Origin: Leptospirales bacterium
GTDB lineage: Bacteria; Spirochaetota; Leptospiria; Turneriellales; JAOUFE01
Length of the DNA: 14,029 nucleotides
Assembly: GCA_040326155.1 (NCBI GenBank)
Contig: JBEQLE010000090.1
Span: 1 to 14,029, forward strand
Direction: 5' to 3'
Position 1 is the stretch's first letter. Every line of letters starts with the position of its first letter. This document shows, piece after piece, positions 293 through 9,391 of this stretch. The notes beneath the pieces are model-generated. The model was not told the origin of the DNA. It ran no database searches and worked only from the letters and a program-made list of their open reading frames with translations. The translations under genes and the position numbers were made by a program.

Positions 293-337
293 ATTAAATT
301 TGGCCTGAAAATGTTTATTCTTATATTTGTCACCTTC

Positions 338-483
338 GCATAACAAATTTTGATCTGCTCAGGCGCGACTGCGCGCGCCTTCGGGTCTCGCATAATATTG
401 TACTTTAAAATGATATTAAAGTTTTAAGAGATAACCGATCAATTGTTTTTTCCTAGATGCTCGACCACATGTTGGGGCTTCCT
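338..483 (+). repeat. attC-like structured repeat, copy 1 (5' part only, interrupted by IS110)
   Basis: Starts GCATAAC and aligns to 2260-2406 with about 22 differences in about 147 nt by hand count, including an identical 34-nt run (ATCTGCTCAGGCGCGACTGCGCGCGCCTTCGGGT). Homology stops abruptly after CCT at 481-483. Confidence 0.75.
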
Positions 484-485
484 TA

Positions 486-491
486 TATGAT
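486..491 (+). promoter_or_regulatory. Candidate -10 box (TATGAT) of the IS110 circle-junction promoter
   Basis: TATGAT lies 2 nt after the CT core. IS110 elements such as IS621 form a promoter on circularisation, with the -10 in the left end. Confidence 0.55.
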
Positions 492-497
492 AAGCTA

Positions 498-675
498 CCG
501 ATGTTATCTGAACGATAATATAACCAGGGAGAGCTATGGCTTCCTCGCATCTGTTCTTCATGAAATTGAATGCTAAAACGGCAGCGGCTCCCCTGGTTCT
601 TCTGACCGCCAAGTGGGGCGAATAGCCCCACATGGTGGGTCGTCCAAAACTCATATAAGGCTGCGGCAGAAGGTT
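498..675 (+). ncRNA. Putative IS110 bridge RNA
   Basis: 5' hairpin TTATC/GATAA (504-518). Stem AACCAGGGAGAGC (522-534)/GCTCCCCTGGTT (587-598) encloses an internal loop with GGCTTCCT (538-545), identical to target flank 476-483. A second domain has hairpin GTGGGGC/GCCCCAC and TCATATAAGG (651-660), the reverse complement of junction 481-490. Ends are approximate. Confidence 0.75.
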
Positions 676-691
676 TTATTGGAGGCACAAA

Positions 692-1291
692 ATGAAACAC
701 TTCGTCGGAATCGACAACTCAAATACTGCACACTCCGTTTATATTATCGATGAAACGGGTAAAAAAGTTAAGGAATTTGAAATTACGAACAACCTTCCCG
801 GATTTAAGAATTTAGAATTGCTTCTATCCGGATTTTCCAATGCCACTATCGGGTTTGAATTATCATATGGTCCTCTTGTGGATTACCTTCGCGAGACGGC
901 CTATAAAATAATTTCAATCAATCCGTTGAAAATCAAAAGGTACAAAGAATCCAATTTAGTTTCAGGAAATAAAACGGACTCAATCGACGCGCATGCCATT
1001 GCCAGCTATCTTCGTTTAAATGAAAACTCTCTTAAGCAAATGGTTTTTAGTTCCATGGAAGTAGAGACTTTGAAACTTTTGGGTGTATCCCATGACAGAT
1101 TGACAAAAGAACAAACAAAGTATATAAACAAGCTGACTGCCATATTTCGCCAGTATTTTCCGCTTTATGACGGTCTTTTTACGAGCACATCGGCTGTAAC
1201 TCTTCTGAAAATGGTAATAAAGTACCCTAAATGGGCAGATTTAAAATCTGAAACGAAAGATGACCTGCGAGATTTTTTCATACTTTCTTAA
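692..1291 (+). pseudogene. Truncated IS110-family transposase/recombinase (RuvC-like DEDD domain plus coiled coil only)
   Basis: Motifs FVGID, GFE, INP and KTDSIDA give the DEDD tetrad. RBS GGAGG at 681-685. Only 199 aa, lacking the C-terminal Transposase_20 domain (IPGIG motif and catalytic Ser). Confidence 0.9.
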
Positions 1292-2199: not shown

Positions 2200-2259
2200 C
2201 TATAATAATCCTTTTATTAAAATAAAATATTATTGACTCTACTTATTTGAAAAAACTTC

Positions 2260-2562
2260 AGATAACAAATTTTCATCTGCTCAGGCGCGACTGCGCGCGC
2301 CTTCGGGTTTCGCATCATATTGTACATCAAAATGATCTTTACGTTTAAAGAGACATTCGATCAATAGTTTTTTTCGTAGATGCTCAACCACATTTTGAGA
2401 CTACCTACGTTTAACCGCCAAGCTCACACGAAACTCTTTGGCAAATAGCCAAAGCCTACGGGAGGTTAGTTTGGTGCCAGTTGGTCGATGACCATCTGGT
2501 CAGCGACTCGCAGGGCTGACTACGGAAGCCCCAAAACGTCAGATAAAATCGAAACGTTACCG
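2260..2562 (+). repeat. attC-like structured repeat, copy 2 (apparently complete, about 300 bp)
   Basis: AGATAAC-AAAT-TTTCATCTG at the left end and CAGATAAAA-TCGAAAC-GTTACCG at the right end form an imperfect terminal inverted repeat. Internal hairpins at 2436-2454, 2477-2499 and 2499-2520. Confidence 0.65.
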
Positions 2563-2837
2563 GCGATCATGGACAAAAGGATTATGACGAGGTCAACACA
2601 GCGAAACACTGGCTGTTGAAAATGGGCGTACCCGAAAAAGATATTTTTACGGATCACGCGGGGTTTTCCACGTATGATAGTCTTTTTAGAGCCAGGGATA
2701 TTTTTCTGATCGATTCTGCCATCGTGGTTACCCAGAAATTTCACCTGCCAAGGGCAGTCTATCTGGGCAAGCAAAAAAGTATGGTAGCATTACGCACAAC
2801 GTACACCGGATGCATGTGTCGTGCTTCGTCTGCCTGA
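2556..2837 (+). pseudogene. sanA: SanA/YdcF-family (DUF218) protein fragment
   Basis: In frame from 2556: VTGDHGQKDYDEVNTAKHWLLKMGVPEKDIFTDHAGFSTYDSLFRARDIF...VVTQKFHLPRAVYL, which contains typical SanA motifs. The N-terminus is missing (in-frame TAA at 2544) and the C-terminus appears degenerate. Confidence 0.85.
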
Positions 2838-8045: not shown

Positions 8046-8380
8046 ATACCACGAAGCGGGCCCCATAAAAACGACGTTTTTTGGGGGCTATTAAACTTCA
8101 AACTATAATCGAACGAAGCGACAAAATAACCGCAGGATTTTTTTATGAAACAAACGAAAACCGTAGGATTTTTTGGAGTAACAAACGAAACCGAAGGATT
8201 ATTTTGTGCACTAACGAAACCGGAGGATTATTTTGTGCACTAACGAAACCGCAGGATTTTTTTGTGAAAATTATACCACGGAGCAGGCCCCCTGAAAAAC
8301 GACGTTTTTTGGGGGGCTATTAAACTTCAAACTATTATCGAACGAAGCGATACAAAAAAACCGTAGGATTTTTTTGTACA
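8046..8380. repeat. Nested intergenic repeat: two units of about 100 bp plus a 29-31-bp tandem array
   Basis: 8046-8144 and 8273-8375 are near-identical, each with a GCCCC..AAAAACG-A-CGTTTTT..GGGGC palindrome. AACCGNAGGATT occurs at 8128, 8159, 8189, 8218, 8247 and 8359. Confidence 0.9.
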
Positions 8381-9391
8381 CTAAGTAAAAAGATAGTTAA
8401 AAGATAACACAAATTCATATGTTGAACTGAAAACCCGGTAATCTATTTTCGCCCAATCGCCCCTGTTGGCCTCTGAAGAAGTTTTGTAATAAACCTGTTT
8501 TTGTCTGCCCCTGGCTGAATATCCTGAATAAGAGGCGCCAAGGTTTAAACCCGCTCTGCGGTTGAAATTATATGTAATATACAAGGATGCCATATAGGAT
8601 TGGCCAGATGCTTTACCTTTAGACTTTTTATATCTTAACAAATGGTTATCCAGGTCGGTTACGTAAAGGTAAGGAGAAACCCCCGTATCAATATTTAGAT
8701 TCCATTTTTTAAAAAACCGGTACGAATACCCGATCATTACCATGGGAACATAAAATTGAATATCATAAGTGATTACTCGCCCGTTTATATTAATATCGGG
8801 ATAAGAACTGCATATTCCATAAGAACCGCAAGAAGGGTAGGTCTGTCTTACATCTTTTCCCGTAAAATTAAAACTACGGTATTCAAAACCGAAACCGGGC
8901 GAGAAATATGATTTAGAATTGATTTTCTTATCCCATCGAAACTGAAATTGCCATAAAATAAAATCGACATAGGTGTCTGTTTTTGAGAAAATATCCAGAC
9001 TGTTTTCGGAGGTCCCCGATATGCCATTGTAGTAAAAAATACCCCAATCGGAATCACGAAGTTTGCCGGCATAATTTGATGCATCTATTTTAACCGAGAC
9101 TAAGAATCGCCACTTATTTTTTGATGTATACTCTATTGAATTGTATACATAAAAAATGTTTTCAAGCGGAAAACGTAATTCGCTTAATGGGAAACGAAAA
9201 TGACCGCTACCGGAGTTGCTGTTGAAATTTCCCCCAATCTGGTAAGTTGTGTGCCCGTTGAGTAAACCCACCCCGGCTTCTACATTAACAGAATTACCGG
9301 AATAATCTACACCCAAAATCGGAAATGAAATCGGGTAAATAAGACCGACGAGAATAATTAAAAGTGTAATTTGAATCAGTCGAATTTTCAT
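8381..9391 (-). CDS. Omptin-family outer-membrane protease
   Basis: Signal peptide, SELRFP, GKLRDSDW (OmpT D83/D85 equivalent), DLDNH (D210/H212 equivalent) and a beta-strand pattern. Confidence 0.85.
   Translation of the reverse strand: MKIRLIQITLLIILVGLIYPISFPILGVDYSGNSVNVEAGVGLLNGHTTYQIGGNFNSNSGSGHFRFPLSELRFPLENIFYVYNSIEYTSKNKWRFLVSVKIDASNYAGKLRDSDWGIFYYNGISGTSENSLDIFSKTDTYVDFILWQFQFRWDKKINSKSYFSPGFGFEYRSFNFTGKDVRQTYPSCGSYGICSSYPDININGRVITYDIQFYVPMVMIGYSYRFFKKWNLNIDTGVSPYLYVTDLDNHLLRYKKSKGKASGQSYMASLYITYNFNRRAGLNLGASYSGYSARGRQKQVYYKTSSEANRGDWAKIDYRVFSSTYEFVLSFNYLFT

Follow-up and report, generated by a model that had tools for sequence, protein, structure and literature searches.

The window, by which we mean the whole stretch of DNA analysed (14,029 nucleotides), contains two copies of a dispersed repeat. 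One of the copies is uninterrupted, and the other is broken by the left half of an insertion sequence (IS). The main features at the locus were as follows.

334–483, plus strand: left part of a copy of the dispersed modular palindromic repeat, interrupted by the IS; 85% identity with 2256–2406
476–483, plus strand: left target GGCTTC (476–481) followed by the junction dinucleotide CT (482–483); identical to the loop sequence at 538–545
484–691, plus strand: left end of the IS, non-coding, encoding a predicted bridge RNA; aligned with 17 homologues
692–1291, plus strand: truncated recombinase gene (199 amino acids) with the DEDD/RuvC-like domain alone; the homology of the relatives stops at about residue 197 (about nt 1282)
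2256–2570, plus strand: uninterrupted long-form copy of the repeat, in which the equivalent of the insertion site is CT at 2405–2406

The protein encoded at 692–1291 matched PF01548 as its only Pfam family (104 bits, residues 5–157, profile fully covered). Its best NCBIfam match was "IS110 family RNA-guided transposase" with 72 bits, which is under the cut-off of 140 bits. The C-terminal transposase domain with the conserved serine (PF02371) was absent, and the open reading frame (ORF) stopped at residue 199. Because the relatives L048 and L055 encode 394 amino acids and carry both PF01548 and PF02371, the window copy has lost its C-terminal half; the absence of PF02371 therefore points to truncation and not to a different family. 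The matches of the relatives to the window protein extended to residues 196–199, and the homology is followed after 40 nt by the stop codon of an unrelated ORF on the minus strand. The window also lacks the right end of the IS, as well as the right part of the interrupted repeat. The left end was 208 nt long (484–691); the right-end motif of the relatives shares bases with the stop codon and extends to about 12 nt beyond it. Judged from its sequence, the window copy is an inactive remnant of an IS110-group element, that is, a dead left half.

Relatives were collected from whole genomes of the same family and order (present in 4 of 61 genomes, counting the window's own), from a species-level genome collection (3 loci) and from metagenomes (38 loci, 16 of them at 47–71% identity). 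DNA and tblastn searches of the window's own assembly found no full-length copy of the IS. The matches within this genome were the window copy itself, a stub of 31 amino acids on contig C149, a left end lying at the edge of contig C29 and another at the edge of C148, and 36 nt of C101 that were identical to 492–527. The sister left ends on C29 and C148 were about 75% identical to the window copy. When the window protein was used as the tblastn query against the assembly, only the stub on C149 was detected, and elsewhere in the assembly the DEDD domain was found solely in two distantly related IS110-family genes, on C100 and C104.

Other remnants were observed in the same genome. The stub at C149:74357–74505 is a sister IS in which an internal deletion joins the start of the left end to the 3′ part of the donor loop, leaving 31 recombinase codons; it shares the left flank GCTCAAGCC-CT with the copy on C29, and the DNA further upstream differs. 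At C97:5500–6340 (L040), the maturase region and domains V–VI of a group II intron (its 3′ part; minus strand, assigned by eye) adjoin a frameshifted orphan C-terminal fragment of an IS110 recombinase, which is followed by the right part of a repeat copy. This orphan fragment was considered as a true right end and was rejected, since its frame breaks at ...SNKWL directly against repeat sequence. Within the window, tandem repeats of about 30 nt (AACCGNAGGATTTTTT...) were present at 8058–8389 between two copies of a 53-nt repeat, upstream of an omptin-family gene. A DUF218 domain fragment of 73 amino acids lies at 2580–2837, directly after the uninterrupted repeat, and looks like a gene remnant.

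Subsequently, the junction between the repeat and the IS is considered. The left end of the IS begins with TATATGA at 484–490, directly after CT at 482–483. We placed the boundary between 483 and 484 because the similarity between the two repeat copies of the window (family D9; C161:334–483) ends exactly at 483, because an invariant TATAT opens all 18 aligned homologous left ends at this boundary after unrelated upstream flanks, and because independent assemblies of two public runs from the same sample gave contigs across this junction (450–732 and 472–609). The contigs from the public runs covered 336–1123 and 2271–2559 of the window. An earlier note on this DNA, made by reading the letters, had set the boundary at the same place, and all of the sequence strings on which that note relied were found where it had put them. 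At 538–545, GGCTTCCT duplicates the left flank plus CT (476–483) at 8 of 8 positions; the 14,029-base window has three occurrences of this 8-mer where 0.23 would be expected, a count that 1 of 200 shuffles reached. At 651–660, TCATATAAGG is the exact reverse complement of 481–490 (10 of 10 positions); its two occurrences (481–490 on the plus strand and 651–660 on the minus strand) compare with 0.04 expected, and none of 200 shuffles reached two. These shuffle controls place the 8-mer and the 10-mer beyond chance. The string AAAACGGCAG lies at 575–584, and TATGAT lies at 486–491. The uninterrupted copy in the window reads GACTAC-CT-ACGTTT at 2399–2412, as the note had said.

The left end was then read as an RNA with two loops, whose parts, together with a candidate promoter element, are listed below.

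491–496, plus strand: probable −10 box TAAGCT of a circle-junction promoter; 17 nt from the TTGACA of the relatives if the ends are joined
525–534, plus strand: 5′ strand of the outer stem of the target-binding loop; pairs with 587–595, with two-sided changes in 5 of 9 pairs (helix 1)
535–546, plus strand: 5′ strand of the target-binding loop with the left target guide GGCUUCCU (538–545); 8-nt identity with its own flank
547–573, plus strand: inner hairpin of the target-binding loop; stem 547–550/570–573, with two-sided changes in 3 of 4 pairs (helix 2)
574–586, plus strand: 3′ strand of the target-binding loop with the predicted right target guide; AAACGG at 576–581 complements CCGTTT, and the family register is AACG at 577–580
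587–595, plus strand: 3′ strand of the outer stem of the target-binding loop (RNAalifold helix and covariation)
598–609, plus strand: 5′ strand of the outer stem of the donor-binding loop; pairs with 663–673, with two-sided changes in 6 of 11 pairs (helix 3)
613–631, plus strand: extra hairpin within the donor-binding loop, seen only in this genome's copies and absent from 15 of 18 aligned left ends
632–640, plus strand: predicted left donor guide AUGGUGGGU; in relatives the homologous AUAGUGGGU equals the right end ATAGTGGGT
651–660, plus strand: right donor guide UCAUAUAAGG, the exact reverse complement of 481–490
663–673, plus strand: 3′ strand of the outer stem of the donor-binding loop (RNAalifold helix and covariation)

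The 208-nt left end folded better than all of 200 shuffled sequences (z = −4.0). For the comparative analysis, the window left end was aligned with 17 homologues. The alignment leaves out L052 and L068 (near-duplicates of L054 and L064), L050 and L051 (the same G001 DNA as L053), L060 (left end cut by a contig end), and L061, L065 and L070 (left ends unalignable). RNAalifold on these 18 left ends gave 30 consensus pairs in three main helices, and 15 of the 30 pairs showed compensatory changes. The consensus pairs were formed in 96.8% of the cells, compared with 90.1% in column shuffles, and none of 500 shuffles reached the observed value; shifting the partner by 1–3 columns lowered the pairing to 38–51%. 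Against Rfam, nothing in the window passed the gathering threshold, and 440–720 remained without a match when hits up to E = 10 were allowed. A conserved fold with covariation among homologous left ends, which the earlier note had named as a test of a bridge RNA at this place, was found in the 18 left ends, and the IS621-type two-loop layout that it had recognised matches the architecture described in Durrant 2024.

The extra hairpin of the donor-binding loop varies within the sampled population. A contig from run X1 has the same junction, lacks 20 nt at 610–631 (the extra hairpin), and has A at 634, which gives the family-typical AUAGUGGGU; two donor-loop forms, that of the window copy and that of public contigs from runs X1 and X2, therefore coexist. 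The hairpin sequence GTGGGGCGAATAGCCCCAC (606–631) follows CGCCAAG, as does CTTTGGCAAATAGCCAAAG (2417–2455), an optional hairpin module of the repeat that it resembles. This likeness could be due to chance or could reflect a tiny mobile hairpin.

According to Durrant 2024 (PMC11208160), the left target guide of a bridge RNA is identical in sense to the left flank plus the core, the right target guide corresponds to the core plus the right flank in reverse complement, and the donor guides follow the same rule. We compared 12 flank bases with the 11-nt 5′ strand of the target-binding loop in 20 elements with a visible left flank, and scored the longest shared run. The runs averaged 6.70 for the 20 cognate pairs and 3.42 for 372 non-cognate pairs; these are position-free lengths among related sequences. 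Runs of at least 7 were found in 12 of the 20 cognate pairs and in 5 of the 372 non-cognate pairs, and the run of the window copy was 8. For the right side, the right-end motif TTGACATAGTGGGT-GT (TTGACATAGTGG-type) was found in 16 of the 21 loci examined. The four bases following this motif were compared with the reverse complement of four bases of the 3′ loop strand in 13 non-redundant elements, and 45 of 52 positions agreed. Shuffled pairings gave a mean of 25.4 and a maximum of 39, and none of 20,000 reached 45.

We also looked for the natural target of the window element among 26 aligned copies of the repeat module that holds the insertion site. The 8-mer GGCTTCCT was present at the homologous place in 3 of the 26 copies (on C67, C104 and C140), and 2 of the 26 read GGGGCTTC-CT-CCGTTTAACC, that is, GGCTTC-CT-CCGTTT (GGCTTCCTCCGTTT-type target). 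These two copies were the sole sites in the genome with the combination of left and right target of the window element in repeat context. Because two uninterrupted repeat copies read so, the natural target is taken to be GGCTTC-CT-CCGTTT. When uninterrupted targets of the sister elements were searched for with patterns of six left and four right target bases, which proved too permissive, dozens of chance matches were obtained, none of them in repeat context.

The predicted right target guide of the window copy fits this natural target with an offset. AAACGG (576–581) can pair with the six bases that follow CT in the natural copies and lies one base off the register of the family. The 4-nt right guide of the relatives lies immediately next to the bases complementary to the junction dinucleotide. 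Read in the same register, the window has AACG followed by GC (AC in the relatives) and specifies GC-CGTT; the natural copies have CT-C-CGTT and are one base out. The difference may be due to a one-base bulge, to a single-base difference in the target copy, or to a shifted crossover. The guide tests in the relatives and the matches in the window thus show that the earlier note was correct in its left target guide (GGCUUCCU), its right donor guide (UCAUAUAAGG) and the loop strand of its right target guide; the covariation of guides and targets that it had proposed to look for was seen on the left in 20 elements and on the right in 13. The right target itself, which it had predicted as CT-GCCGT(TT) (GGCTTCCTGCCGTTT), did not hold, being one base too long.

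The donor guides were analysed in the same way. In relatives, the sequence homologous to the predicted left donor guide equals the right end, and L049 changes both together, to GGTT. The right donor guide of the window copy matches 481–490 at 10 of 10 positions. Among 18 elements, the guide base complementary to flank position −3 was always C, and that complementary to −1 was T in 17. The guide agreed with the flank at position −2 in 11 of the 18 elements, and 371 of 20,000 shuffles were as good.

The dinucleotide before TATAT, counted by eye in 20 flanks, was CT in 10, GT in 7, AT in 2 and GA in 1, whereas the right junction was GT in all 16 right ends. Because the left junction varies and the right is always GT, one 2-nt core common to both sides cannot be taken as demonstrated for the clade. 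Several registers of the predicted crossover dinucleotide fit equally well, given the palindromic flanks and the loop registers of the relatives.

In the relatives, the right end contains TTGACA, which is overlapped by the stop codon. If the two ends were joined in a circle, a distance of 17 nt would separate this TTGACA from TAAGCT (491–496), and one of 12 nt from TATGAT (486–491), the box that the earlier note had pointed out. Among the 18 left ends, alignment columns 9 (A) and 13 (T) did not vary, and TATACT stood there in eight of the relatives. Because of the 17-nt spacing and the two invariant positions, the −10 box is more likely to be at 491–496; it is probably TAAGCT, as suggested by the right ends of the relatives, and probably not TATGAT.

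The repeat into which the element is inserted was surveyed in the whole assembly. A 360-nt query gave 95 BLAST pieces, which were merged into 67 elements on dozens of contigs. The elements are 190–320 nt long and are mosaics of at least five optional modules. Both strands of the short form (about 190 nt) fold as a single long, imperfect hairpin with the ends CATAAC...GTTATG; in this fold, one arm carries the insertion site next to an irregular segment. For the long form, the fold consists of several local hairpins and not of a single one. On contigs with multiple copies, 12 of 17 neighbouring pairs have the same direction, 0.8–4 kb apart. The copies often form such runs of one orientation, and they lie between small ORFs of no known family. 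Between neighbouring copies we called 29 ORFs of at least 70 amino acids mechanically (leaving out the ORF of the window IS and one overlapping ORF); 11 have the same orientation as the repeat and 18 the opposite one.

Other elements were also associated with this repeat. Upstream of two of the three sister left ends (C29 and C148) is sequence that resembles the start of the repeat. Inside the first module of another repeat copy (C104:23300–24700; L038/L041) there is a different IS110-group element, whose frame of 375 amino acids is apparently complete, between the flanks ...GGGCCTTCGATTC and GGGTTTCGCAAATAGC...

We propose, with a probability of about 0.86, that the locus is the product of an IS110-group element with a left-end bridge RNA, which was inserted in an RNA-guided manner into a long palindromic intergenic repeat and was later truncated. 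In the presumed chemistry, RNA-guided recombination would have put the element into one arm of the repeat. In the first loop, the left target guide (538–545) would represent the left flank and CT in sense, and the right target guide (576–581) would complement CCGTTT after CT. In the second loop, the right donor guide (651–660) would complement the junction and the left end of the IS, and the left donor guide (632–640) should equal the right end that was lost. By homology with the relatives, the excised circle would join TTGACA of the right end to TAAGCT (491–496) and thereby form the promoter of the bridge RNA. A later deletion would have taken everything past about residue 197 of the recombinase: the C-terminal domain with its serine would have been lost together with the right end of the IS and the right part of the interrupted repeat. 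Because this deletion removed the C-terminal domain and the right end, the window copy can neither move nor rebuild the promoter.

The matches between the loops and the junction might instead be leftover terminal or target-site repeats, with the 208-nt leader regulating the translation of the transposase and guiding nothing. The leader does end with a Shine-Dalgarno-like GGAGG (681–685) just before the ATG, and guide function cannot be shown on the window copy, which is inactive. However, the loop strands covary with unrelated flanks in 20 elements on the left and 13 on the right, and the stems are held by compensatory changes; moreover, a flank sequence lying 55 nt inside the element in sense orientation is not expected of terminal or target-site repeats. 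We consider a purely regulatory leader highly improbable, and an RNA that guided the insertion remains the preferred reading of the left end.

A second question concerns the nature of the target, which the earlier note had called attC-like, presenting as a novelty an IS110-group element that hits attC. Were the repeat a true attC-type site serving an integron-like cassette system, this element would represent the first lineage of the IS110 group that is specialised on attC. The shape agrees with this: the short forms are single long imperfect hairpins, and their ends recall the R boxes of attC sites. The prevalence of co-directed neighbours at 0.8–4 kb also agrees, as do the further IS110-family copies at other positions in the same repeat and the score of 182 bits that the tyrosine recombinase on C12 (352 amino acids) gained on the integron-integrase model TIGR02249. 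However, this was the best score on the model. No integron integrase was detected at the cut-off of 265 bits, all four tyrosine-recombinase loci lying below it with model positions of about 185–237 unmatched, in a genome that is 94.7% complete, for which absence is not proven. The recombinase beside the array on C106 is an XerD equivalog (356 bits against a cut-off of 330 bits). In addition, attC sites usually fall in a shorter length range than the 190–320 nt of this modular repeat, the long form is not one hairpin, the intervening ORFs are mixed in orientation relative to the repeat (11 same against 18 opposite) unlike those of a cassette array, and the copies are scattered over dozens of contigs. 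A plain integron cassette array was rejected on the integrase scores and the ORF orientation. Because the integrase scores, the long-form fold and the ORF orientation fail to support attC, we judge the target from its sequence features to be a palindromic mosaic intergenic repeat. The term attC-like thus holds for the shape of the short form, and the proposed novelty is unproven, because no integrase reached the cut-off, the repeat is long and modular, and the ORFs are mixed; we regard a true attC site as unlikely. It is also doubtful, although conceivable, that the repeat of about 190 nt is the recombination site of an integron-like cassette system not recognised so far, on which the sub-cut-off IntI-like recombinase on C12 might act, and that several differently programmed left-end IS110-group elements are specialised on different positions in the repeat. 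If true, attC-type targeting would for the first time be seen beyond the IS1111 group.

The recombinase on C12 (C12:8247–9305; L042 1237–2295, minus strand) has an N-terminal extension of 80 amino acids and lies 250 nt from a contig end. It scored just below the XerA and integron-integrase models.

With the target taken as a palindromic mosaic intergenic repeat, the element can be compared with known systems. REP, BIME and ERIC repeats are dispersed, intergenic and hairpin-forming, and are sometimes mosaic. The repeat in the window resembles them in being dispersed, intergenic and hairpin-forming and in serving as a landing site of IS110-family elements; it differs in its length of 190–320 nt, in its at least five optional modules, and in its frequent runs of the same orientation. 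The targeting of palindromic intergenic repeats by the IS110 group, REP included, is already established according to Durrant 2024 (PMC11208160). As described in that paper, IS621 and the IS110 group share with the present element and its relatives the DEDD recombinase, the long left end and the very short right end, a two-loop left-end non-coding RNA in which the left target guide is in sense and the right donor guide and, in the relatives, the right target guide are reverse complements, a −35 box in the right end with a −10 box in the left end (a probable one here), and palindromic intergenic repeats as targets. The present element differs from them in its distantly related recombinase, with a best NCBIfam score under the cut-off, and in the junctions of its clade, which are GT on the right and variable on the left instead of a fixed CT. 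The extra 19-nt hairpin in the donor loop of the window lineage is another difference, as is the truncated and inactive state of the window copy.

The attC-targeting IS1111 group (Post and Hall 2009, as cited in PMC11208160) belongs to the same IS family and likewise inserts site-specifically into hairpin-forming repeats that resemble recombination sites. In the IS1111 group, the guide RNA is in a long right end and there are long subterminal inverted repeats, whereas the present element has a left-end RNA and, judging from its relatives, a right end of about 12 nt; the target here, moreover, is not shown to be attC. ISPpu10, an IS110 element of Pseudomonas putida, offers another parallel, since all of its insertions are reported to fall in copies of one conserved, repeated intergenic sequence (bioRxiv 10.64898/2026.03.19.712850); the host and the repeat are not those of the window element.

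The working picture of IS110 elements is unchanged by the window element. The diversity of the IS110 group gains a small, well-resolved bridge RNA clade, represented by 18 left ends of uncultured genomes, spirochaete-type and others, in which the target and donor guides can be read. Members of this clade may already be among the supplementary target and guide lists of Durrant 2024, which cover thousands of IS110 elements. For the engineering of bridge recombinases, the clade is of interest for its constant GT at the right junction against a variable left junction, and for a 19-nt donor-loop hairpin that is tolerated or at least present. Of further interest in the same respect are the several lineages that occupy different positions of one repeat, and a natural target that is seemingly one base out of register with its guide.
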